The notes beneath the pieces are model-generated. The model did no database searches. It saw only the letters and a list, made by a program, of their open reading frames with translations, and had not been told where the DNA came from. Position numbers and translations under genes: made by a program. A stretch of 64,000 nucleotides of DNA from Candidatus Latescibacterota bacterium (GTDB taxonomy: Bacteria; Latescibacterota; UBA2968; UBA8231), in contig OZ241362.1 in NCBI GenBank assembly GCA_965200315.1, forward strand, positions 1,152,001 through 1,216,000, in the 5' to 3' direction. Positions 11,130 to 31,118 of this stretch are shown here, in pieces (the first letter of the stretch is position 1; every line of letters starts with the position of its first letter).

Positions 11130-11142
11130 ACATCCCTCTCTG

Positions 11143-11796: not shown

Positions 11797-13500
11797 TTAG
11801 AACAGGTGATACAGTTGCGCCAGCGGCAGCTTTTCCGCCGGTTCACAAGTAATTTCCTCGCCGTCGACGTTCACCTTATAGGTCTCTGGATCAACCTCGA
11901 TATTGGGCACCACGTCGTTGAGCCGCATATCGGCCTTGCCAATGTCGCGGCAATTCTCGACGGGCACGACATCTTTTGCCAACCCGTACTCGCCCACTCG
12001 CTCGTGCGAAGCCTGCGAAACAAAAGCCAGCGACGTCGGCCCAACCGCGTTGCCGTAGGACCCGAACATGGGTCGCGGATGCACGGGCTGCGGCGTAGGA
12101 ATGGACGCGTTCGCGTCCCCCATCTGCGCGTAAGCAATCACTCCACCTTTAATCACCAACTCGGGCTTGACGCCGAAAAAGGCGGGCTGCCACAACACCA
12201 AATCGGCCAGCTTGCCCGTCTCCACCGAGCCGATGTGGGCCGAGAGTCCGTGGGCAATAGCCGGGTTGATGGTGTATTTGGCAACGTAGCGCCGCACGCG
12301 ATAGTTGTCAGCACCGCCCGCATCTTCGGGTAACAGGCCCCGCTGTTGATGCATCTTGTGCGCCGTCTGCCATGTCCGGCACACCACCTCCCCCACTCGG
12401 CCCATCGCTTGGCTGTCCGAAGCGATAATCGACAGCGCCCCCAAGTCGTGCAAAACATCCTCGGCGGCGATGGTCTCTTGGCGGATCCGGCTCTCGGCAA
12501 ACGCCACGTCCTCGGGGATATTTTTGTCGAGGTGGTGGCAGACCATCAGCATGTCGAGGTGTTCGTCTATGGTGTTGACCGTGAAGGGCCGCGTCGGATT
12601 GGTCGAAGAGGGCAACACGTATGCCTCGCCGCAAAGCCGCATAATATCGGGCGCGTGGCCACCGCCCGCGCCCTCGGTGTGGTAGGTGTGAATCGTCCGC
12701 CCTTTGAAAGCCGCCCGCGACGCCTCGACAAAGCCCGACTCGTTGAGCGTGTCGGTGTGGATGCAGACCTGCACGTCGAATTCTTCGGCGACGGCCAGAC
12801 ACGCGTCGATTGCCGCTGGCGTCGTGCCCCAGTCCTCGTGCAGCTTGAGGCCGCAAGCTCCGGCCTCAACTTGCTCCGCCAACCCTATGGGCAACGACGA
12901 ATTGCCCTTGCCCAAAAAGCCAAAATTGAGCGGCCAAGCATCGGCTGCCTGTAGCATCGTGCGGATGTAAAAAGCCCCTGGGGTACAAGTGGTGGCATTC
13001 GTTCCGGTCGCCGGGCCGGTGCCGCCGCCGAGCATTGTGGTGATGCCCGAGGCGATGGCCTCTTCCACTTGCTGCGGGCAGATAAAATGCACGTGTACGT
13101 CTAAAGCGCCAGCCGTCAAAATCAGCTTTTCTCCGGCCACCACTTCAGTAGTCGCGCCGACGATCATCTGCTCGGCAACGCCCGGCATAATGTCCGGGTT
13201 GCCAGCCTTGCCGATCCCGGCGATGCGCCCGTCCTTGACGCCGATATCGGCCTTGTAAATGCCCGTGTAGTCGAGCACCAGCGCATTGGTAATTACCAAG
13301 TCCAGTGCCTCTTTTTGGCTCGCGCCGCTTTGCTGCCCCATGCCGTCGCGCAGCACTTTGCCGCCGCCGAACTTGCACTCCTCGCCGTACACAGTGTGAT
13401 CTTGCTCGACCTCGACGACCAAATCCGTGTCGCCCAGCCGCACCCGGTCGCCGATCGTGGGGCCGTACATATCCGCATAAGCGCGTCGCTCAATTCGCAT
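11797..13500 (-). CDS. ureC: Urease subunit alpha (catalytic)
   Basis: [53 protein letters not shown] all intact. Confidence 0.99.
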
Positions 13501-13591
13501 TTAATCTACTCCCTTACTACTCAACAGTCACCCAATAGACGTTACACATGAGCATCTTAGGTATAAGATGCTTCGACTCTGCTTCTACTAT

Positions 13592-14356
13592 CTATGTACG
13601 TAGCTCCGATCCTAAAAAGCCGTGCTCTTTCGCCCGCGCCAGCGCCGCCTGCTTGTTGTCGTCGCTCAAGGCCCCCCCGATCAAACCACTGCCGCCGTGG
13701 ACGACGCGCTGGCCAGCTACGGCGACCAGCGTCACCGTCTTGGTCTCGCCCGGCTCAAAACGCACCGCGGTTCCCGAGGGAATATCGAGCCGAAAACCAT
13801 AGGCGCACGCGCGGTCAAAGCGCAATTCGGCGTTGGCCTCAAAAAAGGGAAAGTGGGACCCCACCTGCACGGGGCGATCGCCCATGTTCGCCACTTCGAG
13901 CTCCACTTTTTCGCGGTCGGCGTTGAGCGCGAGTTCCTCATCCGCCACCAGCACTTCCCCGGGCGCGGTGCTGGACGCGTTGTCCGGCGACCACGTCTCT
14001 CCCACCCTCACCAGCCCCGACCCATAGAGCGCCAACTCGGCGTTGCCGCGCGCCCGGCAGATCGGCTGATGGACCGTCACCAGCTTGGTGCCGTCGGGGA
14101 ACGTGCCCTCCACCTGCACCTCGTGTATCATTTCCGGCACTCCCGGCAACACATCTTCAATACCAAGCAATTGCTTGCCCTTGTCCATCAAGGTGGCAAC
14201 CCGCTCGCCATCGCGAATAAATTCGAGCAACTGCGCCGCGATCAACGCGGTCGCCTCCGGGTAGTTCAGCCGCAAGCCCCGGGCATAGCGCTTCTGCGCC
14301 ACAAACCCGGCGTTGTGCAATACTAGTTTGTCGATTTCCCTCGGTGCAAGCCGCAT
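13592..14356 (-). CDS. ureAB: Fused urease gamma/beta subunit
   Basis: Gamma motifs [11 protein letters not shown] and [14 protein letters not shown], then beta motifs [11 protein letters not shown] and [15 protein letters not shown] in one ORF. Confidence 0.96.
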
Positions 14357-14366
14357 GAATCCTCCC

Positions 14367-15077
14367 TCAAAACGTCAGATAGTTCTTGATGCTTTCATCC
14401 GACAGCTCGTCGGCTGTCCCCTGCAACAGAATGCTGCCGCGGTCCATGAGAAAAAAGTGATCGGCGATCTGCCGTGCGAAGTCGAAGTACTGCTCGACCA
14501 AAACGATGGCGAACTCGCCCCGCTCCTTGAGTTGGAGCAACACCTTTTCTATCGCCAAAATGATCGACGGCTGGATCCCTTCGGTCGGTTCGTCTAACAT
14601 CAGGACCTTGGGTTCGCCGACCAGCGCCCGGGCAATGGCCAACTGCTGTTGCTGTCCACCGCTCAAATTGCCGCCCATCCGCTCCTGCATGTCCGCCAAC
14701 ACCGGAAAGAGCGCGAACACTTCCTCGGGTATCTCGCCACCCCCCGCACGTGCCTGCAAGCCGATCTCCAAGTTTTCCCGCACTGTTAACTGCGGAAAAA
14801 TCTCGCGGCCCTGCGGCACGTATCCCAACCCTCGCCGCGTCCGCTTGTCAGCCGTCAGCGCGGTAACGTCCTCGCCGGCAAAAAACACCCGGCCCTTGCT
14901 CGGTGCCAACAGCCCCATGATCGCCTTGAGCAGCGTCGTTTTGCCGACGCCGTTGCGCCCCATCACCGCCACAATCGAGCCACTGGGAACCTGCAAGCTA
15001 ATATCCCGCAAGATGCGGCTGCCCCCGTAGTGGATATCTAATTCCTCCACCGCCAGCGTGGTCTCAACCGACTGCAC
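14367..15077 (-). CDS. urtE: Urea ABC transporter ATP-binding subunit
   Basis: [43 protein letters not shown]; GTG start with GGGAGG RBS. Confidence 0.95.
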
Positions 15078-15828
15078 TGTGTTCCTCCCGTTCCATGGCC
15101 GTTCCCAAATAGCACTCAATGACGTGCGGGTCGTTCTGCACCGCTTCCATCGGTCCTTCGACTAGGATCTTGCCCTCGTGCAGCACCGTTACTTTGCGGG
15201 CGATTTGCCGCACGAATTCCATGTCGTGCTCAATGACAATCAGGGCGTGATCTTCAGCCAGCCCTTGGAGAATTTCTCCAGTGCGGAAAGTCTCCTCGTC
15301 GGTCATACCTGCCGCTGGCTCATCAACTAGAAAAAGCGTGGGGTCCTGCAAGATGACCATGGCGATCTCCAACCACTGCTTCCGACCGTGCGACAGAGTG
15401 CCCGCGACCTCGTCGAGCACATCCTCCAGTCCCGTGCGCTCGGCCACCTCCTCAATCCGGCGACGCTCGGCTGCTTGGAGCCGGTGGAACAGCGAGGCAA
15501 AGACGCCGCGATTGGCCCTCACAGCTAACATCAGGTTGTCGGCCACGCTCAGGGACGTAAAAACCGTCGGCGCTTGGAACTTGCGCCCCACCCCGAGCTC
15601 GACGATCTCGTCCTCGCTCAGCTTGGTCAGGTCCTGATCCTTGAAATAGGCGTGGCCAACGTCGGGCCGCACCCGGCCGCAGAGCACGTCGAGCAGGGTC
15701 GTCTTGCCCGCGCCGTTGGGGCCGATGACCACTCGCAGCTCGTTTTGGGCAACCTCAAAGATGTCGATGTCCAACGCCTTGAAGCCGTCGAACGACACAC
15801 TCAACTTTTGCACGTATAGATTGTCCAT
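15064..15828 (-). CDS. urtD: Urea ABC transporter ATP-binding subunit
   Basis: VSFDGFKAL, GPNGAGKTT, GRKFQAP, LSHGRKQWLEI, DEPAAGMTDEET. Confidence 0.95.
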   Translation of the reverse strand: MDNLYVQKLSVSFDGFKALDIDIFEVAQNELRVVIGPNGAGKTTLLDVLCGRVRPDVGHAYFKDQDLTKLSEDEIVELGVGRKFQAPTVFTSLSVADNLMLAVRANRGVFASLFHRLQAAERRRIEEVAERTGLEDVLDEVAGTLSHGRKQWLEIAMVILQDPTLFLVDEPAAGMTDEETFRTGEILQGLAEDHALIVIEHDMEFVRQIARKVTVLHEGKILVEGPMEAVQNDPHVIECYLGTAMEREEHSAVG

Positions 15829-15842
15829 CGCCCACACTCGCG

Positions 15843-16901
15843 TTACGCGGCCACCAGCCGCCGGCGCAAACGCCCGACTATGCCGGCGACGCCCTCGGGA
15901 AAAAACAGCACCACTCCGACAAAGAGCGCGCCGAGAAAGTAGAGCCAAGTGCCGGGGAACGCGCCGGTGAGAAAGCTGTAGAGCAAATTGACCAGCACCG
16001 CTCCGACGATCGCGCCCACCAACGTCCCCCGGCCGCCGACCGCGGTCCACACCACGATTTCAATCGAAGCCTGCACGTCCATGCGCCCCGGCGTGATAAT
16101 GCCGGTCTGCGGCACGTAGAGCATCCCCCCCAAGCCCGCCAAGGCGCTGGCGACGACAAAGACGAAGAGCTTGTAGCGAGTGATGGGGTAGCCGATAAAG
16201 CGCAGGCGGTGCTCGCTGTCGCGGATGGCCACCAGCAATTTGCCCAATTTGGAGCCGACGATATAGCGGCACAGATAATACGCCCCCACCAGCGCCGCAC
16301 ACGCCACCACGTAGAGCCCGCGCTTGGTCGCTGGCTCGGCCAATTCAAAGCCCAGCAGCGTCTTGAAATCCGTCAGCCCGTTGGTTCCTCCCAACATGGT
16401 CTCGTTGCGCAAAAAGAGCAGCCACATCGCCAGCGCCAGCACTTGGGTGATAATGGCCAAGTACACGCCCTTGATGCGGCTGCGGAAGGCGAGAAAACCA
16501 AAGACCAGCGCCGCCAATCCCGGCACCAGTAGCCCGAGCAGCAAGGTCAGCGGCAGACTTTGGAACGGCTCCCAAAAAAGCGGCAGTTCCTCGACCCGGT
16601 TCCAGACCATGAAATCGGGCAAGGTGCTGCCGTACACGCCTTTAGTCCCGGTCTTGAGCAGCATGTGCATGCCAATGGCGTAGCCGCCCAAGCAAAAGAA
16701 AAATGCCTGACACAGCGATAGAATGCCGGTAAACCCCCAAATCAGGTCCATCCCAAGAGCGACGATGGCAAAACAAAAATAGCGCCCCCACAGGTTCAGG
16801 GTCGTATCGGCAACCAAGCCCAGATAGTTGAGCAGGGGGACGAGCACCCCGAAAAAGGCGAACAGCGAACCAGCGACGATGTGGTGCCTAGACGCGCTCA
16901 C
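15843..16901 (-). CDS. urtC: Urea ABC transporter permease
   Basis: DLIWGFTGILSL, LPDFMVW, FRSRIKGVY, GGTNGLTDF, AVGGRGTL. Confidence 0.95.
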   Translation of the reverse strand: MSASRHHIVAGSLFAFFGVLVPLLNYLGLVADTTLNLWGRYFCFAIVALGMDLIWGFTGILSLCQAFFFCLGGYAIGMHMLLKTGTKGVYGSTLPDFMVWNRVEELPLFWEPFQSLPLTLLLGLLVPGLAALVFGFLAFRSRIKGVYLAIITQVLALAMWLLFLRNETMLGGTNGLTDFKTLLGFELAEPATKRGLYVVACAALVGAYYLCRYIVGSKLGKLLVAIRDSEHRLRFIGYPITRYKLFVFVVASALAGLGGMLYVPQTGIITPGRMDVQASIEIVVWTAVGGRGTLVGAIVGAVLVNLLYSFLTGAFPGTWLYFLGALFVGVVLFFPEGVAGIVGRLRRRLVAA

Positions 16902-18583
16902 AGTTCCGCGCTCCGTCCTTTGGCGGGGAAGAGGCCCGTCGGGCGCGATTGCAAGAAGACGATAATCAAGCCCAACAGGATGACCTTGCCGTACACGGCT
17001 TCAAAGAGCGGCTCGAGCATCTTGTTGAAGATGCCGATCCCCAGCCCGGCACTGATCGTGCCTAGCAGCTTGCCGACCCCGCCGGTGACAACCACGAGAA
17101 ACGAATCGACGATATAGGTCTGGCCCATGTTGGGCACGACGTTCCCAATCAGCGTCATCGCCCAACCGGCGACCCCGGCAATCCCCGTACCCAAGGCAAA
17201 GGCCATCGAGTCAATGCGCCGCACGGGTACCCCGACGCAGGCACTCATCGCCCGATTTTGGGTCGTGGCCCGCAGCTTGAGGCCAAAACGCGTACGAAAG
17301 AAAAGCGCCAACAGCATCCCGACGATCGCCGCAGCCAGCGCCATGATGAACATGCGGTTATAGGGCAACACCACCTGAGGAGCCATTTCCCAACCGCCGC
17401 TTAGCAGTTGTGGCAACTTCACAGCCGTCAGATCGCCAAAGACGCTGCGCGCCGCTTGAATCAGCACCAGACTAATGCCCCACGTGGCCAGCAGGCTTTC
17501 GAGGGGGCGGCTGTATAGCCGGCATATAATCGACGCCTCTAGCAGGAACCCAACGCCACCAGCGACTAGGAAGGCAAGCGGGAAGGAGATGGCGAAAAAG
17601 AGGTCGCTGTACTCCGGCGGCAGCACGCCCAAACACAGGTTTTGCACCACAAAAGTGGTATAGGCACCGATCATCATAAACTCGCCGTGCGCCATGTTAA
17701 TCACCCCCATCTGGCCGTAGATAATCGCCAACCCCAGCGACATCAACACCAGAATGGACCCCAAGCTCAGACCAATAAAAATCGTCTGCACCGCCTGCAT
17801 GGACGAACTAAAACGTCGCAAGCTAGTCAGGGCCGCTGCCGCCCGCTCTCGGACTTGAGCGTCTGGTTCGGCAAAAGCCCCAGACTCGTCTGTATTCAAG
17901 AGTTCCTCTAGCACAGGTATGGCCAGCGGACTGCGCAGTTCCTCCAATGCAGCCACCGCCTGCAAGCGCACTTCTGCCTCTGCGTCGGCCAATTGCAGTT
18001 TGGCCAACGACACGCGCTTCAACCGCCGGATCGACCCATCCGCCTCCGCCTCGATGGAGCGGCGCAACGTCGAGATGTCGGCCGCGTTTCCCTTGTTGCC
18101 GATATTTTCAGCGGCAATCCGCCGTTTGTTCGCGGCCGGATGGAAGAGTTCCATCTGCAACAAATAGGGCTGGATCAGGGCCCGGATCTTCCGATTCGTC
18201 TCGACTTCCTCTATATCGTAGAGCGAAATCTTGACCTGCTTACCATCTTCGTCGAGAATGGGCTCTCGCTTGGCGTAGGCTGTAAAGAGCGGCGCGATTG
18301 AATCGCCGTACTCGTCCATTTCCTCGTCGCCGATGAGCACCAAGCCGCTGTGCGCTGCGCGCTCGCTCCAGCGATAGACCGCTCCGCTGAACAGCCCCTG
18401 CATCAATGCGTAATGGGCTTGGTCGTAGCGCGCGGCCAAGTCGGTTACGGCCTGTTGAATCTCCTCGTCGTCGCCGCTGGCCAGCCGCGCAAATTGCTCT
18501 TCGTCCCACGTGTCGGCCCCTGCCGATCCAGCCGCTAAGACCCACACCGCCAGTATTTTTATCACCTGTTGTCCCATTGGCAA
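16898..18583 (-). CDS. urtB: Urea ABC transporter permease with periplasmic HEAT-like N-terminal domain
   Basis: GLAIIYGQMGVINMAHGEF, RPLESLLATWG, YIVDSFLVVV.GGVG, PTGLFPAKGR; signal peptide. Confidence 0.94.
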   Translation of the reverse strand: MPMGQQVIKILAVWVLAAGSAGADTWDEEQFARLASGDDEEIQQAVTDLAARYDQAHYALMQGLFSGAVYRWSERAAHSGLVLIGDEEMDEYGDSIAPLFTAYAKREPILDEDGKQVKISLYDIEEVETNRKIRALIQPYLLQMELFHPAANKRRIAAENIGNKGNAADISTLRRSIEAEADGSIRRLKRVSLAKLQLADAEAEVRLQAVAALEELRSPLAIPVLEELLNTDESGAFAEPDAQVRERAAAALTSLRRFSSSMQAVQTIFIGLSLGSILVLMSLGLAIIYGQMGVINMAHGEFMMIGAYTTFVVQNLCLGVLPPEYSDLFFAISFPLAFLVAGGVGFLLEASIICRLYSRPLESLLATWGISLVLIQAARSVFGDLTAVKLPQLLSGGWEMAPQVVLPYNRMFIMALAAAIVGMLLALFFRTRFGLKLRATTQNRAMSACVGVPVRRIDSMAFALGTGIAGVAGWAMTLIGNVVPNMGQTYIVDSFLVVVTGGVGKLLGTISAGLGIGIFNKMLEPLFEAVYGKVILLGLIIVFLQSRPTGLFPAKGRSAEL

Positions 18584-18608
18584 AATTGAACTCCGCCCCG
18601 TGAAAAAC

Positions 18609-18691
18609 GGAGCGGAGACGGCCTTGTTACCTTTTACCTTTTACCTTTTACCGTACCAATCGCTAAACAACTAAGCGGCCGTCTCCGCTCC
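18609..18691. repeat. 15-bp perfect inverted repeat enclosing a (TTACCTT)n tandem array
   Basis: GGAGCGGAGACGGCC (18609-18623) / GGCCGTCTCCGCTCC (18677-18691); TTACCTT x3 plus TTACC at 18627-18652. Confidence 0.9.
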
Positions 18692-18697
18692 ACCCAC

Positions 18698-19597
18698 CTA
18701 AAATGTTAGCAGCGACTCTAGGGCAATTTGCGTCACCGCGTCGGCGTCGCCCACTGTGAGCATCTTCACCTCGGCCACCAAGCCCCAGTGGTCCGAAACG
18801 GCGTAACTCGGGGCAATGGTGATCTCGCTCGTTTCGTCGTCCTTGCCGCCACCAATCGGAGTCCACGCGATAGCCGAGTACCGGGCCGTTACGCCGGCCT
18901 GATCGCTCGGGCCGTAATTGACCATCCCGAGATACCCCAACCCCGACTCATACCCAGCCCAATCGCTCATCGAATTCACCTCGGCAGCGACCGTCAACGG
19001 CCCCGTCTCCAACATACCCCAAACGTTGATCAAGGTCTGTTCGTCTTCCTTGGCCAACGCGGCTTTAGCCGTTATCCCTTCCACAGGCATCAGCGCAACC
19101 TGCGCCTCAAACCCTACGTCGCTTTGATCCCCCGAGAGATCGGTTTCCGCGCCGTCCCACACGCTGGAGACCACTGCTCCGTACAGGCCGAACATATCCG
19201 AGCCATAGGAGGCCGCGACCCCGTTCTGATAGCCGCCATAGACCAGCGTAGCCGAGTACGAATACTGATACATGCCGGTGGGTTCGGCCGCTTCAAAGCC
19301 GGTGCAGCTAAGAAACTTGCCCACCGTGAGCGCCAAGCCTTCGCCGGTGTCGTACGCGATGAAGGCTTGCTCTAATTCGACCGGAGCGGTAGGCCCCAAG
19401 GCATTGACATCCGCCCGCACGGAGATCCCTTCCCCGAGATCCGTCGAGACATCCAACTCAAACTGGTCCAGCGACATGCTCGCGTTTCCATCGTCGCTGA
19501 ACAAGCTCATATCGACGAACCCGGAGAATTTGACCTCGGCGGATACCGTCTGGGCGGCAAAAATCGCCAGTGCAAATGCTGCAACTTTCTTGTTCAT
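18698..19597 (-). CDS. Outer-membrane beta-barrel porin within the urt operon
   Basis: Signal peptide MNKKVAAFALAIFAAQTVSA, FSGFVD, LEQAFI.Y, LTVGKF...GFEAAEPTG.YQYS, C-terminal Phe. Confidence 0.85.
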   Translation of the reverse strand: MNKKVAAFALAIFAAQTVSAEVKFSGFVDMSLFSDDGNASMSLDQFELDVSTDLGEGISVRADVNALGPTAPVELEQAFIAYDTGEGLALTVGKFLSCTGFEAAEPTGMYQYSYSATLVYGGYQNGVAASYGSDMFGLYGAVVSSVWDGAETDLSGDQSDVGFEAQVALMPVEGITAKAALAKEDEQTLINVWGMLETGPLTVAAEVNSMSDWAGYESGLGYLGMVNYGPSDQAGVTARYSAIAWTPIGGGKDDETSEITIAPSYAVSDHWGLVAEVKMLTVGDADAVTQIALESLLTF

Positions 19598-19626
19598 GTT
19601 TGCGTCCTTCTGCGCTAAGTAGAGTA

Positions 19627-20901
19627 TTACTCTAGGGTATAGGTACCCATGTAATTGACGTGGTCGCAGTCCTTGTCGGCGCTGGTGATATCGTCCCACG
19701 GATCCGGGGCTACTAGGCCATCCGATTCATAGACAATTTTGAACTGGCCGTTCTTTTTGATTTCGCCGATATAGACGGGTTTGTGCAGATGGTGATTGCG
19801 CTCGTCCATCATCACTTGGCCGCCCGGCGAGTCAAACGCCAGCCCGTAGAGCGCCGGCCGCACCTTTTCCACGTCAAAGGAACCGGCCTTTTCGACCGCA
19901 CCCTTCCACAGATAGACCCCAGTATAGGCCCAGAGAATCGGATCGTCGGTGACGCGCTTTAAGCCGCCGGGCAAATCGTTGTCCGCGCAGTACTTCTTGA
20001 AGCTCTTGACGAAATCCCGATTTTCCTTGGTGGCGACGGACTGGAAGTAGTTCCAAGCCGCCAGATGACCGACCAAAAACTCGGTATCCATCGCCCGCAG
20101 TTCGTCTTCGGCCACTGAAAAGGCCATGATCGGGCACATTGCCGAAGTCAGCCCCTGATTGGCGAATTCCTTGTAGAAGGGCACGTTGGAATCGCCGTTG
20201 ATCGTGCTCAAGACCGCGGCTTTACCATCGGCGGCGAAATTCTTGATCTTCTGCACGATGGTCTGGTAATCCTGATGGTGGAAGGGCGTGTACTCCTCCA
20301 TGATATTCTCCTCGGGCACCCCTTGGTTGAGGAGATAGGCGCGCAGGATTTTGTTGGCCGTGCGCGGGAATACGTAGTCCGTGCCGAGCAGATAGAATTT
20401 CTCGTACCCGCCGCCTTCTTCGCTCATCAGATACTGGGCGGCTGGGATCAACTGCTGGTTGGGGGTAGCCCCTGTATAAATGATGTTGCGCGAACACTCT
20501 TCGCCCTCGTACTGGACCGGATAGAACAGCAGCCCGGCGTTTTCCTCAAAAACCGGCAACACCGATTTGCGCGACACCGAAGTCCAGCATCCGAAGACGG
20601 ACGCCACCTCGTGCTCTAGCAACAACTCTTTGGACTTTTCGGCGAACAGGTCCCAGTCGGACGCCGGATCGACGACCACCGGCTCAATTTTGCGGCCCAG
20701 CACACCGCCGTTGGAATTGATTTCTTCAACCGCCATCAGCACGGCGTCGCGCAGCGATACCTCCGAGATAGCCATCGTGCCGCTGAGCGAGTGCAGGACG
20801 CCCACTTTGACTGGCTCCTGCGCCCGGGCGCTTGAATGCATCCCAGCGACGATTAGCCCTAAGGCGACAAACGCAATCCAAAACTTACTTGGTCCTCTCA
20901 T
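19627..20901 (-). CDS. urtA: Urea ABC transporter substrate-binding protein
   Basis: KVGVLHSLSGTMAISE, FGCWTSVSRKSVLPVFE, FYPVQYEG, GTDYVFPRTANKI, STINGDSN. Confidence 0.96.
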   Translation of the reverse strand: MRGPSKFWIAFVALGLIVAGMHSSARAQEPVKVGVLHSLSGTMAISEVSLRDAVLMAVEEINSNGGVLGRKIEPVVVDPASDWDLFAEKSKELLLEHEVASVFGCWTSVSRKSVLPVFEENAGLLFYPVQYEGEECSRNIIYTGATPNQQLIPAAQYLMSEEGGGYEKFYLLGTDYVFPRTANKILRAYLLNQGVPEENIMEEYTPFHHQDYQTIVQKIKNFAADGKAAVLSTINGDSNVPFYKEFANQGLTSAMCPIMAFSVAEDELRAMDTEFLVGHLAAWNYFQSVATKENRDFVKSFKKYCADNDLPGGLKRVTDDPILWAYTGVYLWKGAVEKAGSFDVEKVRPALYGLAFDSPGGQVMMDERNHHLHKPVYIGEIKKNGQFKIVYESDGLVAPDPWDDITSADKDCDHVNYMGTYTLE

Positions 20902-20987
20902 TAATCCCTCCAAAAATTGTAGTGTTAAATGGCCGAGCGACAACGCACTCTAATATTCCGGCTCAGACCGATTTCGCTCTCTCTATG

Positions 20988-21002
20988 GCAAAAAGGATAC
21001 CA
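20988..21002 (-). promoter_or_regulatory. Sigma-54 (-24/-12) promoter for the urt-ure operon
   Basis: Minus strand TGGTATCCTTTTTGC = GG-N10-GC, about 90 bp upstream of the urtA ATG. Confidence 0.7.
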
Positions 21003-21326
21003 GAACGGCATCCTCAGCATTCCATAGACGGAGCAGGAGGGAACATTTTTGGTACTATCTCTTTATGTCGCAAAGAGATACGCAATTTGTAATTTTGTTA
21101 TTTTTTATTACGTAAATGGAATTTTTGGCCGTTTGGTCGCTTAGTTTTTTGAGCAATAGACGACAGATACGTAATTTTTGAAATTCAAAAACAGACATAT
21201 ATGTCGCTTTAATGCCGCTTTTTGCACCTCACTGCGGGGCAAAATCCATGCTTCGCGGCACTTTGCGGCTAGGAAGAACAGCCGGAAAATACAATTATGT
21301 AATTTTTGAATTTGCGGCCGAAGAGA

Positions 21327-22172
21327 TCAATACTTTCGGCGCAGTGGATTTTCGCCTAGGACTTGGGGCAGAGATACGGCCGTCGCGAGCGCGTGCAAGA
21401 CTTCCGCTAGATCGCCATTGGTTCGCCCCAAGGCGCGGAGCGCGAGGACGCCGGGACGAGGTTCGGCGAGCGAAACCAACGTTGCCTTGCTCGTCGTCCC
21501 GCACGTCCGCTGGTCAGTAAGCAGCGGCGCTAAGGCACAGCGCAGCACTTCCTCAACGGCAGAGCGCACTGGAGCGCCGACGATAAAGGCATTGGCGAAT
21601 GCCGAGTATGGGCCAAAAGCCCCAACGCGGTCGGGGGCCTGCTGCTTGGGCTGCAAACGCAAGCGTTCGGCCAATACCAGTTCGCCTTCCGAGTAGATGG
21701 ATATATTAGATGTATAAGAGCTGTAGTGGAACTGCTCGCCGCGTGCGCCGCGGCCTGCGGTGCCTCCGTCGAGCAAGACCAGCGAGGCACCCGCCCTTAG
21801 ATGCCAGACCTGTTCCTGCACAAAGGCGCTGTCGGCATAGGGCACCACCGGATCGGGCAGCGATACGACGCAAGCACCTGCTTCGATGTGCCCGGCTAGC
21901 TCTTGACGTGCGACCTTACCGCCGGTGGTCTTGTACACTTTGGTAAAGGACTGCGTGCCCAAAAAGAGCTTGGCCGACCGACCGCAGCGCACGCGCAGCC
22001 GAGCGCAATCGCCGGCGACCAAACCGCCGCCATAGCTCGAAAGCACGGCCGTGCTGTAATCGGCCTCAACCTTGGGGCTGAGGATTTTCAACGGCGCGAC
22101 GGCCAAGCAGGATGTCAACCGCGACCTTCCCCCAACGCGGCTCACTTCGACGATGGACCAACCCTCGTCCAT
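21327..22172 (-). CDS. ureD: Urease accessory protein UreD
   Basis: PLKILSP, SSYGGGLVAGD, TQSFTKVYK, PDPVVPY, AGR.ARGE, ends RRKY. Confidence 0.9.
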   Translation of the reverse strand: MDEGWSIVEVSRVGGRSRLTSCLAVAPLKILSPKVEADYSTAVLSSYGGGLVAGDCARLRVRCGRSAKLFLGTQSFTKVYKTTGGKVARQELAGHIEAGACVVSLPDPVVPYADSAFVQEQVWHLRAGASLVLLDGGTAGRGARGEQFHYSSYTSNISIYSEGELVLAERLRLQPKQQAPDRVGAFGPYSAFANAFIVGAPVRSAVEEVLRCALAPLLTDQRTCGTTSKATLVSLAEPRPGVLALRALGRTNGDLAEVLHALATAVSLPQVLGENPLRRKY

Positions 22173-23755: not shown

Positions 23756-25600
23756 ATGAAAGCATTCCTCACACGACTCGAACAAGCCGCTGATTTGCGC
23801 GAAGTCCAATCGCTCGTTGATCACATTCTCGATGCGGCGCGGTCCGGCGGCAAACCCGAGGAAAAACGCCGTTTCCTCCGTGACTTGCTCTTCAATCGGG
23901 TGCTTTTGTCCCGCTTAGAGACCCCGGCGGCCCTCGACGCGCTTCTCGCGGCAACCACGCCCGACGAGTGGGAAGCCCTCTTCGGCGCTGCGGTCGCCCA
24001 AGAGCTGCCGCAGCTAACCGTCGATCTCGTTGATGGCTTGGTCGATTTCGACCACCGGCAATTGCTGCGGCTTTTGCCCCCCCAATCCTCCAAGGCGCTC
24101 TTGCAGGTTCTCAGACGCCTCAATACCTATTTAGAAGAATGCGATAACTCGGCCCGCTATCTACGCGGCATGCGCACCGCCCGCATCATGGCCGACATCT
24201 ACCGAACGCTCGCTGCCGAGTCGCGGGTCTGGCGGCGAGCGCTGCCGCCCTGCTGCATCGACGGCCAAGCCATCGTCCAGCTCAAAGAGGCCAAGCAAAC
24301 TGACAAACTAGCCGCGGCCTACGAGACGCGGATCAACCAGCTACAGAGCCTTGACCTCCAGCACAGCTTGGCCGCCTTCGGCAGGGGTCGCACCGCTGCG
24401 CCGCGCATGATCAAAGCGGCCCACGACCAAGCCTTTTGCATTCAATCGCCCCTGCGTCTAGGAATCTCCAGCGCCAATGCCTCGGACAATCACCTGCGCA
24501 GCAAGGAACAGGGCGGCAAGACCCTCAACATCGCCGTCAATCTGCAACAAGGCCGGGAAAAGCAGGCCCAACCGCCGCTACAAGTCACCGCGCGGAGGCT
24601 GCCCGAACCCCAACTCATCCTCCGCTCGCGCTCCCAAGGCTTCAAGGCCGACTTTGAGGTGAACAAACAAAGCGCGGCCACAACCGTCAGCGAGCTGTTT
24701 TTTGCCTATCGCCGCAGCGGCGACGAATCGCTGCGGTTGGTCAAGCAAGGGCTGGTCCACGCAGGCATCGTCCGGCCAAACTCCACAGACGTCATCAAAG
24801 ACATCGCCGCCTTTACCGGTGGCGGTGGCCTAGAAATCACTACGAGTAGTAAGGTGTTACAAGGCTCCGGCCTAGGGACCAGCGGCATCTTGTCTGCCGC
24901 CATCCTCAAAATGCTCTACCACCTCTCCGGCCATCCCTACGCCGCCTCTGCGGACGAGTACCCCGGCCTCTACGACCAAAGTCTCATGCTCGAACAGAGC
25001 CTCGGCCTCAACAGCGGTTGGCAGGATGCGCGCGGTGCCAGCGGCGGCCCCTCGGCCATCAAGAACTTTTACGCGCCGCCGACCAATGGCCTGCCCGCGC
25101 CCGAGCGCACGTTCCTCACCGAGGTGGACGAGCGCTTGTTCACCGAGCGGGTCGTGCTCTTCGATACGGGAATATCGCGCTCGGCTACCCGCGGCCTCAA
25201 CGTCGTTCTCGATGCCTATCTGTCGCGCGATCACCAGCGCTATGCCGCCATCCGCGAGTCGCTGGCCATTCACGACGACATGGTAGCTGCGCTGTGTACA
25301 GGCGCATACGCCGATCTCGGGCGGCTAGCCAACCGCTACTGGCAGTTGCGCTGCATCCTCGACCCCCAAGCCACCAACGACGCCCTGCAACACCTTTTTG
25401 AGAATCCGCAGATTACCGACCTGACCGAGGGCGGGCTTCTCACCGGAGCTGGCGGCGGCGGCTTTGCCCTCCTCATTGCCGCCGAGGGGCAAGCCGCCGA
25501 GCTGCGCACTAGGCTCGTCAAGCTGCGCCAACACGCGGCTTTTGCCAACAGCAGGGTGGTCTTCTATCAGCTCAATGCCCAAGGCATCCATCTCGCGTGA
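23756..25600 (+). CDS. GHMP-family kinase (fucokinase/heptose-kinase-like) with long N-terminal helical extension
   Basis: QGSGLGTSG ATP loop, LEQ.LG..SGWQD, GGLLTGAGGGGF. Confidence 0.8.
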   Translation: MKAFLTRLEQAADLREVQSLVDHILDAARSGGKPEEKRRFLRDLLFNRVLLSRLETPAALDALLAATTPDEWEALFGAAVAQELPQLTVDLVDGLVDFDHRQLLRLLPPQSSKALLQVLRRLNTYLEECDNSARYLRGMRTARIMADIYRTLAAESRVWRRALPPCCIDGQAIVQLKEAKQTDKLAAAYETRINQLQSLDLQHSLAAFGRGRTAAPRMIKAAHDQAFCIQSPLRLGISSANASDNHLRSKEQGGKTLNIAVNLQQGREKQAQPPLQVTARRLPEPQLILRSRSQGFKADFEVNKQSAATTVSELFFAYRRSGDESLRLVKQGLVHAGIVRPNSTDVIKDIAAFTGGGGLEITTSSKVLQGSGLGTSGILSAAILKMLYHLSGHPYAASADEYPGLYDQSLMLEQSLGLNSGWQDARGASGGPSAIKNFYAPPTNGLPAPERTFLTEVDERLFTERVVLFDTGISRSATRGLNVVLDAYLSRDHQRYAAIRESLAIHDDMVAALCTGAYADLGRLANRYWQLRCILDPQATNDALQHLFENPQITDLTEGGLLTGAGGGGFALLIAAEGQAAELRTRLVKLRQHAAFANSRVVFYQLNAQGIHLA

Positions 25601-26253
25601 GGACGGCAACGGTGGCTACCAAGAGAGAGCACTTGCTCATAGACGGCTACAACCTCATCAAAGTGAGCCAGCTTTTCCAAGCCCGCGGCGACTCGCTAAA
25701 ACGAGCGCGTAACCGCTTGGAGCAAGCACTCGCCGCCTATGGTCGCCGCACCAACAAGCACATTGCGCTGTACTACGACGGCACCGGCGCAGTGCCGAGC
25801 ACTGCCAGCGCAAGCAGCCCGTATGTCACCATAGAATTCTCGCGCTACCCTGAGCAGGCCGACGACCTGATCGCGCAGGCGGTCGAAAAAAAGCACGGTG
25901 CCAAGTGGCTGCGGGTCATCAGCTCGGACCGCGCCGTCCAGCGCTGCGCCGCGCGCCACAAGATCCGCTCAACCTGTTCTGAGGATTTTCTCGACGAACT
26001 CACAGGCCCTGTGCAGGAGTCGAGCGAACCCACACCTGCGCCCGCCCGCGACGGCACCGAATCCCACCCGCCGCTCGACCCAAGCGAACTAGACAGCTGG
26101 GAAGCCTTATTTCGCAAGAAAGCTGACGAGGCACCCAATGCGCCCGCACCCGCGCCTGCGCCCACCCGCAACGGCACCGAATCCCACCCGCCGCTCAACC
26201 CCAGCGAATTAGACTGCTGGGAAGCCGTGTTCCGCAAGAAAGCCGACCGCTAG
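25597..26253 (+). CDS. YacP/Rae1-like NYN-domain protein with duplicated C-terminal tail
   Basis: LIDGYNL, YYDG, ADDLI, VISSDRAV motifs. Confidence 0.85.
   Translation: MRTATVATKREHLLIDGYNLIKVSQLFQARGDSLKRARNRLEQALAAYGRRTNKHIALYYDGTGAVPSTASASSPYVTIEFSRYPEQADDLIAQAVEKKHGAKWLRVISSDRAVQRCAARHKIRSTCSEDFLDELTGPVQESSEPTPAPARDGTESHPPLDPSELDSWEALFRKKADEAPNAPAPAPAPTRNGTESHPPLNPSELDCWEAVFRKKADR
26035..26247 (+). repeat. Intragenic tandem duplication, 120-bp period
   Basis: PAPARDGTESHPPLDPSELDSWEALFRKKAD vs PAPTRNGTESHPPLNPSELDCWEAVFRKKAD; DNA copies at about 26035-26127 and 26155-26247. Confidence 0.93.
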
Positions 26254-26924
26254 GGCAGCGCGAGGTCGCGCAGCACGGCCAAGCTGTGCTGTCCTTGGGT
26301 ACCGCCCGTCCGCGCCAAGGCTTCGAGATGCACCTTTAGGAACCCGGCCTCAGCCGGCGTATCCACATCGTACCATGGCGGCAGCAGGCCGAGCGTCTGC
26401 GTCCCCAAGCGCGCTAGGGTTTGCGCGAATACCATCCCGGTGCTCCAAGCCACGTCTTGGAATATCCGGCTTTCCCCTTTGCGTCGGCCCACCAAGTAGT
26501 AGCCGCCGTCCGTGCTCGGGCCTAAGACCACTTCCTTCTCGCGCAACAGCACCAGCCCCTCGTCGATGTAGTTGGCTGGCAGAGAAGGGCTGTCCGAGCC
26601 GACGAGGACCACTCGTTCAGCTCCCCGCGCAAACCCCCACTGCATCAGGCCCTCCATCCGCTGCCCTAGCTCGCCTTCGGGCTGCGGCACGTACTCGAAG
26701 GTGCCAATCGGACTCAGCAGGGCGCACAGGGCGTCTTCGGCATGGGTCGGAGTAAAGGCCACGACCTTGGCAGTAGCCTGTGTCGCATGCAACTCAGTCG
26801 CGCAATCGAGCAGCAGGGCCTCGTACAGACGTGCGGCGTCTTGGGCACTCAGATGGCTCTGGAGCCGGGTTTTGACCGCTCCGGGAGCTGGTTTTTTGGC
26901 AAACAGCACGGCGCAGGTGGACAT
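26250..26924 (-). CDS. TIGR04282/DUF2064 family glycosyltransferase-like protein
   Basis: FAKKPAPGAVKTRL, QPEGELGQRM, VGSDSP, VLGPSTDGGYYLVG, WST, WYDVDTP. Confidence 0.92.
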   Translation of the reverse strand: MSTCAVLFAKKPAPGAVKTRLQSHLSAQDAARLYEALLLDCATELHATQATAKVVAFTPTHAEDALCALLSPIGTFEYVPQPEGELGQRMEGLMQWGFARGAERVVLVGSDSPSLPANYIDEGLVLLREKEVVLGPSTDGGYYLVGRRKGESRIFQDVAWSTGMVFAQTLARLGTQTLGLLPPWYDVDTPAEAGFLKVHLEALARTGGTQGQHSLAVLRDLALP

Positions 26925-27014
26925 CTACTTCCCCCTATTGTCTATCGTCGGCAGACCGCCTATTTTCTGCAATATAATTCGCGGCAACCTTTCACAAAAT
27001 CAACCGAGGAGCTC

Positions 27015-28211
27015 ATGGCCCAAGTCAATATCGTTCGCCACAACCCCATCGCCATCTTTTCCAACCCCACCGAAGTAATCATCACCGACGACAACGGCCA
27101 CGTCGTGCGCCTAGTCGAGCCTTCGGGCAACGTCGGCACCCAATACGCCAACGACGTCGGATCGGAGTGGTTCGGCACTATCGAGAATCTCAACAAGGGG
27201 CTCGAAATTTGCGGCGTCCACTGGTCCGACGTGTACAAGACCGACGTCCTGTGGACCACCCCCTCTGCCGACCGCGACGAGTGCGACCAGCGCAAAAACG
27301 ACTTCAACGCCTGCTACGGCGCCATGATCGCCGCGGTCACCGGCGGTCCCTTGCGCTCCAACCGCATGGCCCGCTTCACCCACCCGGAAGGCTTCCCGGA
27401 CCCAGCGGCCCTTTTCGAAATTCAGATCAAAGCCTGTGCCGGCGAAACCGTCTCCATCAGCGGTGGCACAATCGACTACGGCACCTGGGTCGATCACCAG
27501 CCCTCGGGTGCCTCGGTCATGCACCAGCGCGACGGCGAAATGATCACCACGCTCGGCGACGACTTGGCCGAAGAAATGCGCTTCGTCCTCGAAGAGCAAT
27601 ACGCCAAGCCCTTTGCCGAGCAAGGCGTTGACTTCAAAAAGCAGACCGTATTCATGGAGATTCTCGTGGCCGTGGACGACGATCCAGACAAAACTTGGGA
27701 GCGCATCGAGACCACCCGCCAAGTCTTTGCGGATTACTACGGAGACGACCGCCCCGCCGGCCTGATCTACCCGGTGTCGCGGATCCCCAATCTCGACGGC
27801 ATCGTCGAGCCTCAGCCCCGCGTGGTCTCCGGCGAGGTCGAAATCGTGCGCTCGGGGCAGATCGAGGACGGCTTCTCGACTTGGGCGGGTTTGCGCCACC
27901 ACGGCGTACGCGAAGTCCACGTCTCAGCCGTCGGTGGCAGCGACGCCGGCCAGCAGCTTGGCACGCTCGACGCCCGGATCAAGGAAGCCGGCGGCGCGGG
28001 CCTCAAGGAGGACGGTGTCTTCAACAACGCCTACATCGTCGCCGGGGCCGATTCCGCGCAAAATCGCGCTGGATTGGTCGCCTTCAACGAGTCCTTCAGC
28101 GCGTACTACGCCGGCACGGCACCGGCTGGCCGCACCGCCCAGTTTATCGGCGGCATCCAGCAGCAAGGCCATCAGAGCGGCATCGCCACCCGGGCGATCT
28201 TCGCCGAGTAG
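27015..28211 (+). CDS. Putative triple Rid (YjgF/YER057c/UK114)-domain protein
   Basis: ATG with GAGGAG RBS; 398 aa; three approx. 130-aa units each with a Rid-like pattern (SG.V / ENL..GL..CG..WSDVYKT / FN..Y / PA / LFEIQ). Confidence 0.6.
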   Translation: MAQVNIVRHNPIAIFSNPTEVIITDDNGHVVRLVEPSGNVGTQYANDVGSEWFGTIENLNKGLEICGVHWSDVYKTDVLWTTPSADRDECDQRKNDFNACYGAMIAAVTGGPLRSNRMARFTHPEGFPDPAALFEIQIKACAGETVSISGGTIDYGTWVDHQPSGASVMHQRDGEMITTLGDDLAEEMRFVLEEQYAKPFAEQGVDFKKQTVFMEILVAVDDDPDKTWERIETTRQVFADYYGDDRPAGLIYPVSRIPNLDGIVEPQPRVVSGEVEIVRSGQIEDGFSTWAGLRHHGVREVHVSAVGGSDAGQQLGTLDARIKEAGGAGLKEDGVFNNAYIVAGADSAQNRAGLVAFNESFSAYYAGTAPAGRTAQFIGGIQQQGHQSGIATRAIFAE

Positions 28212-28215
28212 TCCC

Positions 28216-28710
28216 GTGCTCAGCGCCGACAAGATCATCGCCGCCCTCGAACGGCACGGCATTACGCACGTGCTAGGCGTGCCCGATAACGGCTCGTGCG
28301 TCCTGTACGAGCGCCTGTGGGACCACGACACCATCGAAGTGATCCTCACCAGCCGCGAGGGCGAGGCCTATGGCTTGGCCTCTGGCCTGTATTTGGGCGG
28401 CGCCCATCCGCTGGTACTGATCCAGAATACGGGCTTTTTGGAAGCCGGCGACGCCTTCCGCGGCACGGCCTACAACATGGGTATTCCTCTCGTCATGCTC
28501 GTCGGCTACCGCGGCTACGCCACCATGACCCGAGGTGCCCCCCGGGTCGATACGGCCGCCACCTTCTTCGAGCCGACCCTCAAGGCTTGGAACATCCCCT
28601 ACAGCGCCATGCACACAGACGACGACTGTGGTCAAATCGACGCCGCGTTCGCCAAGGCTCAAGAGACCTCGCTGCCAACCGCTGTGCTGCTGGTCGTGGA
28701 GACTGCATAA
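28216..28710 (+). CDS. ThDP-dependent decarboxylase alpha subunit (ComD/phosphonopyruvate-decarboxylase-like)
   Basis: GITHVLGVPD, REGEAYGLASG..LGG, IQNTG, IPLVMLVGYRG; GTG start. Confidence 0.85.
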   Translation: MLSADKIIAALERHGITHVLGVPDNGSCVLYERLWDHDTIEVILTSREGEAYGLASGLYLGGAHPLVLIQNTGFLEAGDAFRGTAYNMGIPLVMLVGYRGYATMTRGAPRVDTAATFFEPTLKAWNIPYSAMHTDDDCGQIDAAFAKAQETSLPTAVLLVVETA

Positions 28711-28711
28711 G

Positions 28712-29281
28712 ATGCTCGACAAATACACCTGCCTCGCAAAACTAGCCGCCAAGCGCACGGACGAAGTCGTGGTCACTACCATGAGCGTGGCCATGCCTTG
28801 GGCTGCACACTCCGACGGCCCGCTGGACTTTGCCCACGTCGAAAGCGCCATGGGGCACGCGGCCGACTTTGCCCTCGGCTTGGCCATTGCCCAGCCCGAG
28901 CGACGGGTCTTGTGCATCAACGGCGACGGCAGCACCCTGATGTCGCTGGGCGTCCTCGTCACCTTGGCCCAGCGCCCGGCCCCCAATCTAACTCTCGTCA
29001 TCACGGAAAACGGCACGTACGAAGTAACCGGCAGCCAGCCGGTGCCCGGTGCCGCCTTTATCGACTACGAGCAAATCTGCCGTGGAGCCGGTCTCCAGCG
29101 CGTCTATACCATCGACACCGACGACGACTTTGACGCCAAGCTCGATCAGCACTTTGCGGAAGAAGGCCCGGTAGTCTTTATCTGGAAAATCGCTCCGGCT
29201 ACCGAGCCGGTGCCCAAACCGGCTCTGCCGATCGGCGAACGCGCCCAGCGCCTGCGCGCCGCCCTAGTCGACGAGGGATAG
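28712..29281 (+). CDS. ThDP-dependent decarboxylase beta subunit (ComE-like)
   Basis: AMGHA...LGLA, ThDP motif GDGSTLMSLG...ENGTYEVTGSQP. Confidence 0.87.
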   Translation: MLDKYTCLAKLAAKRTDEVVVTTMSVAMPWAAHSDGPLDFAHVESAMGHAADFALGLAIAQPERRVLCINGDGSTLMSLGVLVTLAQRPAPNLTLVITENGTYEVTGSQPVPGAAFIDYEQICRGAGLQRVYTIDTDDDFDAKLDQHFAEEGPVVFIWKIAPATEPVPKPALPIGERAQRLRAALVDEG

Positions 29282-30420
29282 AGGTACCCATCGTGCAACT
29301 ACCGCAGATGGCCCCGGTCAAGCAGCACTTTGCCAGCGACTCGCTCACCGATGTGGCCGGCGAAGTCCGCCGCCAGCTAGCCCGCGCCGGCTTAGCCGAT
29401 GCCGTCGCCCTTGGCGCACGGATCGCCGTTGCGGGCGGCAGCCGTGGCATTGCCAATATCCCGCTCATCACCCGCACTGTTGTCGACTGCGTCAAAGAGG
29501 CCGGCGGCGCGCCCTTCCTGCTGCCAGCGATGGGTAGCCACGGCGGCGCTACCGCCGAAGGCCAAAAGCAGGTGCTGGCCGGCTATGGTCTCGACGCCAC
29601 GAGCATGGGCTGTCCGGTCGAGGCAACTATGGACGTCGTCGAAGTGGCCCAACTCGACGACGGCACTCCCGTGCTACTCAACCGGCTCGCCACCGAAGCC
29701 GATGGCGTGGTGCTCATCAACCGCGTCAAGCCGCACACCTCCTTTCGAGGGCCTTTTGAAAGCGGCCTGATGAAGATGATGACCATTGGCCTAGGCAGCC
29801 ACAAAGGCGCGACCATCGCCCACGCTGGAGGAGCCGAGAGCCTCGCCCGCCTGATCCCGGATTGGGGCCGCTGCATTCTTGACAAAGCACCGATCCTCAT
29901 GGGGTTGGCCATCGTCGAAAACGCCTACGAACAGACCCTCCGCGTCGAGGCCCTGCAACCCGGGCAGTTCCAAAGCCGCGAGCCGCAGCTTTTGGAGGAA
30001 TCGAGGCGCACCATGCCCCGCCTCTTCGTCCGAGGCATTGACCTGTTGATCATCGAACAAATCGGCAAGAATATCTCGGGCACGGGCATGGACACCAACG
30101 TCGTCGGCCGCATGCTCCTGCCCGGCGTCAAAGAGCCGGAGTCCCCGGGCGTGGCCCGCATCGTGGTGCTCGACCTGACCGACGAAACCCACGGCAATGC
30201 CAATGGCGTCGGTCTCGCCGACATCATCACCCGCCGCCTATACGAGCGCATCGACTTCAAGTCCACGTACGCCAACGTTTTTACCTCCACCTTCCTCAAT
30301 CGCGCGTACATTCCCGTCGTCATGCAAACCGACCGCGAGGCCATTGAGGCCGCGCTCTCGGTGCAAAACCTCGCTAATTCCGCACAGGCGCGCGTCGTCC
30401 GCATCAAAAACACCCTCGAC

Positions 30421-31118
<698 letters not shown>

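Follow-up and report, generated by a model that had tools for sequence, protein, structure and literature searches.

A gene at positions 27,015–28,211 of a 64,000-nt stretch of contig OZ241362.1 from Candidatus Latescibacterota (the whole stretch is referred to below as the window) encodes a 398-aa protein, here called the target, that is best explained as a whole as a diverged, fused trimer of Rid domains with non-canonical active sites, which probably serves as an accessory helper enzyme acting on small carboxylates. A sequence-only reading of the window had divided this product into three units, residues 1–143, 144–273 and 274–398, each following the RidA pattern, and had proposed that they form an asymmetric single-chain trimer. 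All of the motif strings that it quoted are found in the translation, and its unit boundaries are essentially right as judged by a structural model and by the single Rid proteins that match each third. The three-unit pattern picked out by eye is real, although it is the fold and not sequence statistics that bears it out.

Predicted fold and structural neighbors

An AlphaFold2 model (mean predicted local distance difference test score, pLDDT, 83.4; predicted template modeling score, pTM, 0.87) was built from a shallow alignment of 35 sequences that are 65–86% identical to the query (alignment A1). At the level of this model, the target consists of three YjgF/Rid-type domains (approximately residues 5–144, 147–273 and 273–397) packed as a pseudo-trimer, with each third predicted to run through strands, a helix, a strand, a helix and two further strands, in agreement with the chorismate-mutase-like beta-alpha-beta-alpha-beta-beta fold of the Rid family. 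The model was compared with 48,161 PDB representatives using VIA-align, and a second comparison was made over the top 993 chains returned by Foldseek. The best full-length matches are the chorismatases (4bps, 5a3k and 5ag3), which align co-linearly over the three domains with Z scores of 20.9–21.2 and root-mean-square deviations (rmsd) of 3.1–3.4 over 268–273 residues; Hyg5 (5a3k) superposes on model residues 28–395 (Z 20.9–21.2, rmsd 3.3–3.4, 273 aligned) and FkbO (4bps) gives Z 20.9. Chorismatases also occupy the top Foldseek ranks, together with cyanuric acid hydrolases (E 6e-8 to 1e-6). The superposition over 273 residues on proteins that are themselves pseudo-trimeric agrees with the divergent single-chain pseudo-trimer that had been proposed.

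Two other classes of protein match the whole model less closely. The FIST domain of FBXO22 gives Z 13.2–14.3 and rmsd 3.9–4.5 over 248–273 residues (14.3, 4.2 and 269 in VIA-align), and the cyclic amide hydrolases give Z 8.4–9.1 with rmsd 5.4–5.7, including barbiturase 5hwe (Z 8.4, rmsd 5.7, 289 aligned). Each third, taken by itself, matches single-domain Rid proteins: residues 147–273 match RutC (3v4d; Z 10.8, rmsd 2.0, 110 aligned, 21% identity), residues 273–397 match the Rid protein 3i3f (Z 9.0, rmsd 2.0, 113 aligned), TdcF (2uyj; Z 9.2) and Escherichia coli YjgF (1qu9; Z 9.0), and residues 5–144 match the Rid protein 2ewc (Z 7.6, rmsd 2.6, 113 aligned). All three parts are thus predicted to adopt a YjgF-like fold, and no characterized family counts the target as a close member: identity to Hyg5 is 12%, and neither Pfam nor NCBIfam assigns it to a family.

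Fusion of Rid domains is in itself already known and is not new here; three Rid domains in tandem were named 3x-RidA in 2015, with EF_0115 as an example (Niehaus et al., BMC Genomics 16:382, PMC4433059). A canonical 3x-RidA protein, a 410-aa open reading frame (ORF) from a related genome with three PF01042 stretches (E 7.7e-57), served as a control and was modeled with AlphaFold2 from nine sequences (alignment A2; pLDDT 87.9, pTM 0.89). Its structural neighbors rank in the same order as those of the target, with higher scores throughout: Z 26.3 over 292 residues against Hyg5 (target 20.9), 15.9 against the FBXO22 FIST domain (target 14.3), 8.6 against barbiturase (target 8.4) and 13–17 against single Rid proteins (target 7.6–10.8). 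Because the control yields the same ranking, the resemblance to chorismatases appears to reflect a shared pseudo-trimer architecture and no special kinship, and the target is best described, on the strength of the models, as a very diverged 3x-Rid-type protein and not as a chorismatase.

By sequence, the two are not demonstrably related. Neither blastp nor phmmer detected significant similarity between the target and the 3x-RidA proteins of its lineage, and an hhalign comparison of A1 with A2 gave E 0.0044 at a probability of 7.9%, with the two out of register. Bridging by way of other triple-Rid proteins (L114/L119, L115/L116 and L117/L118) likewise gave no significant similarity to the target.

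Ten of the phylum's 168 genomes contain the canonical 3x-RidA type, three of them (G131, G132 and G139) alongside the target. Besides the target, the same class has no fewer than three kinds of triple-Rid protein (L114/L119, L115, L116, L117 and L118; genomes G014 and G016). One is the canonical 3x-RidA (410 aa, three PF01042 stretches); a second, of 383–425 aa, also has three such stretches; and in a third, of 369–401 aa, the middle domain alone is recognized. Within this lineage, new variants of the concatenated Rid fold seem to have arisen repeatedly.

Rid signal at the sequence level

Family searches leave the target nearly blank. No Pfam family, including PF01042, FIST_N and FIST_C, matched at E ≤ 10, and a PF01042 scan of the same genome recovered five other, ordinary genes and not the target. 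In NCBIfam, RutC alone was detected (E 0.039, residues 226–250). Run against PDB sequences, the target by itself and the A1 profile both returned sub-threshold Rid matches alone, covering residues 232–265; among them, PH0854 was matched by HMMER over residues 234–265 (E 0.28–0.41), TM0215 also aligned within unit 2, and the profile produced two such matches (E 0.41 and 0.51). In the ESM Atlas, the target retrieved its own clusters and one PF01042 cluster, the latter with a score of 0.86, under the level of 0.9 taken as a lead.

When the thirds of the target were aligned with one another by hhalign, E values of 0.8, 0.21 and 0.044 were obtained, so close to noise that the triplication is not established by sequence alone. 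Somewhat better scores came from comparison with 33 aligned Rid ORFs of the ordinary kind, drawn from the same and related genomes: unit 1 gave E 7.9e-4 (111 columns), unit 2 4.2e-3 and unit 3 0.053; each of these values stems from a single comparison, and the alignments are co-linear and span the full domain.

The gene and its family

The ORF is a real, conserved gene. It contains no internal stop codon over its 398 residues, and although the longest open frame begins at position 26,742, the real start is the ATG at 27,015, which follows a GAGGAG sequence and is supported by retention of the M1-A2 N-terminus in all 35 aligned homologues. The divergent gene upstream ends at 26,924.

A word-indexed protein search found at least 189 homologues at E ≤ 0.001; among the 120 listed, lengths range from 365 to 405 aa and identities from 65 to 98%. 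Named homologues derive from metagenome-assembled genomes of Latescibacterota, Gemmatimonadota or Zixibacteria, many of the matching genomes are labeled Latescibacterota, and a few members carry the JGI name "enamine deaminase RidA". An exhaustive phmmer search of 1.84 billion representatives clustered at 50% identity gave 53 matches, comprising one full-length cluster and 52 pieces of 56–240 aa; no full-length relative below approximately 50% identity and no longer fused form was among them. By this measure, the family appears tight and isolated, forming a single cluster at 50% identity.

Within A1, mean column identity is 77% and 111 of the 398 columns are invariant (46 in unit 1, 41 in unit 2 and 24 in unit 3). 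In unit 1, PSGNVG represents an SGQ-like motif and the SNRMARFT strand is invariant. Two conserved loops of the same unit, residues 39–45 and 122–132, are the only regions of the model with pLDDT below 50. No lysine is invariant in any unit; K75, K94 and K139, all in unit 1, are conserved in at least 90% of the sequences.

Active-site positions

Residues of the Rid active site were mapped from HMMER and hhalign alignments to Rid proteins, combined with conservation in A1. The position of RidA Tyr17 is occupied by an invariant aromatic residue in all three units (F15, W158 and W290), and that of Glu120 by an invariant glutamate in units 1 and 2 (E135 and E265). Unit 3 has no Glu120 equivalent, its last strand being devoid of a conserved acidic residue and carrying the invariant R393. 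The position of Arg105 falls on G249 in unit 2 (PAG-L), as placed by HMMER against PH0854 and TM0215. In unit 3 it is taken by G372, with the invariant R373 directly after it (PAG-R), a shift of one residue, and in unit 1 by L113/R114, where the alignment is unreliable and R114 is not invariant. The invariant arginines are R117, R120, R269, R373 and R393. An arginine lacking in unit 2, near the expected position in unit 3 and possible in unit 1 is the pattern that the sequence-only reading had described, and its suggestion of non-equivalent interfaces is likewise consistent with these assignments, by which active-site residues and their conservation differ among the units and no cleft would be that of a canonical RidA.

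Arg105 is described as essential for imine hydrolysis in the survey of the Rid superfamily, which states that the Arg-less subfamilies Rid4–7 "presumably serve other functions" and reports no imine hydrolase activity for Rid7 of Salmonella (PMC4433059). Since the canonical arginine is missing or shifted in every unit, the target is unlikely to work as a classical RidA that hydrolyzes imines at three sites. For the chorismatases, Glu-334 is given as the essential glutamate of Hyg5 (PMC7170507). It falls at about residue 389 of the target, an approximate placement counted back from where the alignment stops (chain residue 340 against model residue 395), and no acidic residue occurs between residues 388 and 397 in any of the 35 sequences.

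Genomic context

The target gene lies immediately upstream of three genes on the same strand (Table 1). The GTG start of the first, encoding the alpha subunit of a thiamine diphosphate (ThDP)-dependent decarboxylase, is 4 nt beyond the target stop codon, and the ATG of the beta subunit is 1 nt beyond the stop of alpha. The alpha subunit scores 73 bits against the sulfopyruvate decarboxylase alpha model TIGR03845 (cut-off 148) and the beta subunit 110 bits against PRK06163 and 99 bits against TIGR03846 (cut-offs 221–240). Neither therefore reaches the curated cut-offs set for decarboxylases of sulfopyruvate or phosphonopyruvate, and the split alpha/beta enzyme looks like an uncharacterized subfamily related to ComDE. 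A member of group 22 of the LarA superfamily (LarA22) follows.

Table 1. Features of the target gene and its flanks (window coordinates)
Feature	Position	Strand	Basis and remarks
DUF2064/TIGR04282 CofC-like transferase	26250..26924	-	divergent upstream; conserved neighbor, 51/80 loci
Shine-Dalgarno-like GAGGAG	27006..27011	+	3 nt before ATG; read from sequence
Triple Rid-fold protein gene (target)	27015..28211	+	398 aa, stop TAG 28209-28211; translation, homologues, AlphaFold2 model
Unit 1, residues 1-143	27015..27443	+	most decorated Rid-like domain; hhalign, 2ewc match
Unit 2, residues 144-273	27444..27833	+	most RidA-like domain; RutC 3v4d match, hhalign
Unit 3, residues 274-398	27834..28208	+	Rid-like domain; 3i3f, TdcF 2uyj and YjgF 1qu9 matches, hhalign
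ThDP-dependent decarboxylase alpha subunit (ComD-like)	28216..28710	+	PF02776 TPP_enzyme_N, E 1.3e-11
ThDP decarboxylase beta subunit (ComE-like)	28712..29281	+	PF02775
LarA-superfamily nickel-pincer-cofactor isomerase, group 22	29293..30537	+	NF052515, E 8.6e-160, 532 bits (cut-off 400)

Gene order was compared at 80 loci taken from genomes that represent species; of the 202 pattern matches, 137 were confirmed. In the first and commoner context, the DUF2064, ThDP-alpha, ThDP-beta and LarA22 genes stand beside the target (49–51 of the 80 loci), down to target identities of approximately 61%. The second, found at 20 loci, places on the plus strand a fuconolactonase-like Amidohydro_2 gene, a COX3-like membrane protein, an aminotransferase-fold gene of class I/II, the target, a Zn-dehydrogenase and an SBP_5 ABC importer. 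Five loci show neither arrangement. At four loci (L073–L076) the target is beside LarA22 without the decarboxylase, and at three (L061, L065 and L077) the two are separated by birA, a biotin-protein ligase gene, which shows that the block does not everywhere form an operon with one purpose; a similar extra spacing of approximately 0.8–1.1 kb, seen as spacing alone, lies between target and decarboxylase at L078–L080.

Across the 168 genomes of the phylum, the target is present in 102: 67 of 75 in family f1, 30 of 31 in f2, 4 of 22 in f4 and none of the 39 in other families. Nearly all have one full-length copy, with extra partial matches in G060, G094 and G160. The ThDP beta subunit is found in 73 genomes (68/75 in f1, 0/31 in f2, 0/22 in f4, 2/3 in f3 and 2/2 in f9). 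The target consequently occurs without the decarboxylase in f2, and also in genera g9, g13 and g19; the reverse, a decarboxylase with no target, is seen in genera g8 and g14. In G119 (g14), the DUF2064/ThDP-alpha/ThDP-beta/LarA22/rpoN order is intact, with approximately 100 bp at the place of the target; in G111 (g8), the decarboxylase has neither the target nor an adjacent LarA22. The target and the decarboxylase-LarA22 pair each occur without the other, and the target is dispensable from one operon. LarA22 is found in 152 of the 168 genomes, often as two paralogues approximately 43% identical, and because it is near-universal in the phylum its co-occurrence with the target is uninformative.

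Proposed function and alternatives

At the level of the model, the three Rid-fold domains of the single chain pack in the manner of RidA trimer subunits, giving what would be a monomeric pseudo-trimer with three non-equivalent clefts; one or two of these are proposed to be specialized for a small carboxylate-bearing metabolite. Binding of a small carboxylate is suggested because E135 and E265, the aromatic residues F15, W158 and W290, and several arginines are invariant. The protein would accelerate a reaction that also proceeds, slowly, without it; candidates are conversions that yield a 2-oxo acid, by hydrolysis or tautomerization, from a 2-imino, enamine or enol acid. According to the Rid survey (PMC4433059), genes of the RidA type are typically found clustered with those of pyridoxal phosphate (PLP)-dependent enzymes, and their products act on imines that also hydrolyze spontaneously. 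The target may, in the same way that RidA-type proteins accompany PLP enzymes, have been recruited as a helper into different catabolic operons, partnering a ThDP 2-oxoacid decarboxylase and a LarA-type 2-hydroxyacid isomerase in the family represented in the window, and an aminotransferase, a Zn-dehydrogenase and an ABC importer in a sister family. Both operon contexts center on the C2 chemistry of carboxylic acids. An accessory role is suggested because there are two such contexts and because the target is missing from an otherwise identical operon; this helper function is the preferred proposal.

Several observations weigh against that reading. The structural claims are built on one AlphaFold2 model from a shallow alignment of 35 sequences, and the best single-domain score of unit 1 (Z 7.6) is in a range common for unrelated folds. 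PF01042 is blind to the target, so that the choice between Rid homology and convergence on a small, common fold depends on weak profile scores and on the fold. The residues lining the clefts were assigned from sequence alignments, with low confidence around the PAR position of unit 1. A dedicated enzyme of a main pathway would also account for conservation as high as this, with numerous invariant positions in each of the three units. Gene order in the first context may partly reflect general synteny of a housekeeping region, given the birA inserts and the proximity of rpoN, lptB and pyrG to the target in the window, and because the synteny may be general, the operon partners say little about the substrate.

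The chief competing explanation is that the target is a new main-pathway enzyme with one asymmetric site, which makes or consumes the substrate of the ThDP decarboxylase/LarA22 pair, such as a 2-oxo or 2-hydroxy acid of the sulfo-, phosphono- or sugar-derived kind, the concatenated YjgF fold having been neofunctionalized as in the chorismatases and cyanuric acid hydrolases. The gaps of 4 and 1 nt that suggest tight translational coupling, the adjacency of the target to both decarboxylase subunits and LarA22 at more than half of the loci, and the very strong conservation (111 invariant columns) all speak for it, and the conserved low-pLDDT loops of unit 1 look like lids. The fold class has, moreover, evolved new chemistries before, as described for the YjgF-related folds (bioRxiv 10.1101/2024.06.03.594717). 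Such an enzyme would not be expected to be absent from the decarboxylase-LarA22 operon of G119 and from G111, however, nor to persist without the decarboxylase in f2, g9, g13 and g19; the near-universal LarA22 lends it no weight, and no substrate can be named. It is on balance unlikely. A related formulation, in which the concatenated YjgF fold was, after the chorismatases, the cyanuric acid and barbiturate hydrolases and FIST, independently re-invented once more as a dedicated enzyme with one asymmetric site, performing a new step on a 2-oxo, 2-hydroxy or 2-amino acid that feeds the ComDE-like decarboxylase and LarA22, is a tentative possibility.

Improbable, by comparison, is a non-catalytic module that binds a small molecule or a protein, as the FIST domain may do. 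FIST has three repeats with pseudo-three-fold symmetry, is related to YjgF, the chorismatases and the cyanuric acid hydrolases, and is proposed to be sensory (bioRxiv 10.1101/2024.06.03.594717). The match of the FBXO22 FIST domain to the whole model and the loss of the canonical catalytic arginine would suit a module of this kind, but the 3x-RidA control matches FBXO22 equally well, which makes the similarity generic, and neither FIST_N nor FIST_C was detected in the target. The target is also a stand-alone protein with no signaling output domain, its gene lies inside metabolic operons, and chemistry, more than binding by itself, is suggested by the polar and charged residues kept without exception at positions of the Rid active site (E135, E265 and R373).

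Least probable of all are chorismatase-type cleavage of an enolpyruvyl ether, for which the Hyg5 and FkbO matches (Z ~21) are offset by the identical ranking of the control, the lack of any chorismatase family in Pfam or NCBIfam at E ≤ 10, the lack of an acidic residue near the approximately placed Glu-334 equivalent and the absence of shikimate or aromatic-polyketide genes among the scanned window ORFs, and a classical three-site RidA deaminase, which the JGI name of some members and the position behind an aminotransferase-fold gene in one context would favor but the glycine in place of Arg105 in units 2 and 3, and its inconstancy in unit 1, do not.

Two further leads to the substrate were set aside. 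The terms "group 22" and "LarAH22" are absent from the main texts of the LarA literature searched (PMC11770544, PMC12611868 and PMC7583248), in which no characterized member was found, and LarA group 22 was accordingly rejected as a guide to a substrate name. A phosphonate or sulfonate pathway was rejected for the operon, no phosphoenolpyruvate mutase or sulfonate enzymes being present among the 54 window ORFs, and remains a bare possibility.

Comparison with known systems

The target resembles 3x-RidA in having one chain of approximately 400 aa with three Rid-fold domains, presumed to form a covalently linked trimer, and the models of the two share an ordered list of neighbors. It differs in that the canonical protein has three PF01042 stretches where the target has none at E ≤ 10, in its lower scores against single Rid proteins, and in the lack of significant sequence similarity, by which it falls outside the RidA subfamily. 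With FkbO and Hyg5 it shares a single-chain pseudo-trimeric architecture derived from the YjgF fold; identity is only 10–13%, however, there is no common sequence family, and neither the essential glutamate (as approximately mapped) nor an aromatic or shikimate gene context has a counterpart. Compared with single-domain RidA, YjgF and RutC proteins (PF01042), the Rid fold is predicted in each third, the match of unit 1 being borderline, and the Tyr17-position aromatic is retained in three of three units and the Glu120 equivalent in two of three, whereas the target is a fused chain and not a homotrimer, conserves the essential Arg105 in no unit and lies below PF01042 detection.

Four kinds of single-chain pseudo-trimer built on the YjgF fold are already established, 3x-RidA (PMC4433059) being one; the other three, chorismatases, cyanuric acid hydrolases and FIST, have been named together as YjgF-related folds (bioRxiv 10.1101/2024.06.03.594717). 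The Toblerone-fold hydrolases (AtzD/TrzD and barbiturase) and the FBXO22 FIST domain are, like the target, single-chain, three-repeat proteins with pseudo-three-fold symmetry, thought to derive from YjgF, but they superpose more poorly (rmsd 5.4–5.7 and 3.9–4.5, respectively) and no family match to them was found in the target. The cyclic amide hydrolases of the Toblerone fold have three Ser-Lys dyads, to which the target, with no invariant lysine, has no counterpart.

What is new is a lineage-restricted family, too diverged for the family databases, in the company of two further types of orphan enzyme. Trimers made by Rid fusion are widespread, but no function has been assigned to any of them, and the survey of the field applies the word "mysterious" to the Rid subfamilies that lack the arginine (PMC4433059). 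Something specific is likely to be under selection in the target, because the family has moved beyond sequence recognition and yet is 65–98% identical across two bacterial families. Its neighbors, the ComDE-like ThDP decarboxylase and LarA group 22, are uncharacterized types as well, so that three orphan families are found together. The target also provides a test case for annotation, being left blank by Pfam and NCBIfam and placed immediately by a fold search.

Other genes of the window

Upstream of the target and divergent from it, the region 23,756–26,924 includes a 614-aa fucokinase-like GHMP kinase. Its C-terminal two-thirds are similar to the part of Fkp that acts as fucokinase (E 6.4e-43), and its N-terminal ~220 aa are unassigned. 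This kinase, an NYN/YacP-like gene and the TIGR04282 transferase form a trio that is syntenic with the target at 34–51 of the 80 loci. Downstream, between the LarA gene and rpoN, an ORF for a ribonuclease toxin of the BrnT family (PF04365, E 4e-29) overlaps the start of an 84-aa ORF without a Pfam match, which presumably encodes the BrnT antitoxin; the pair occupies 30,599–31,118 on the plus strand. A complete-looking urease cluster is found on the minus strand at 10,425–22,172 (UreG/cobW-like, UreF, alpha, fused gamma-beta and UreD), and adjoins a five-gene ABC transporter of the branched-chain/urea type with a Peripla_BP_5 protein and an OmpL-like porin.

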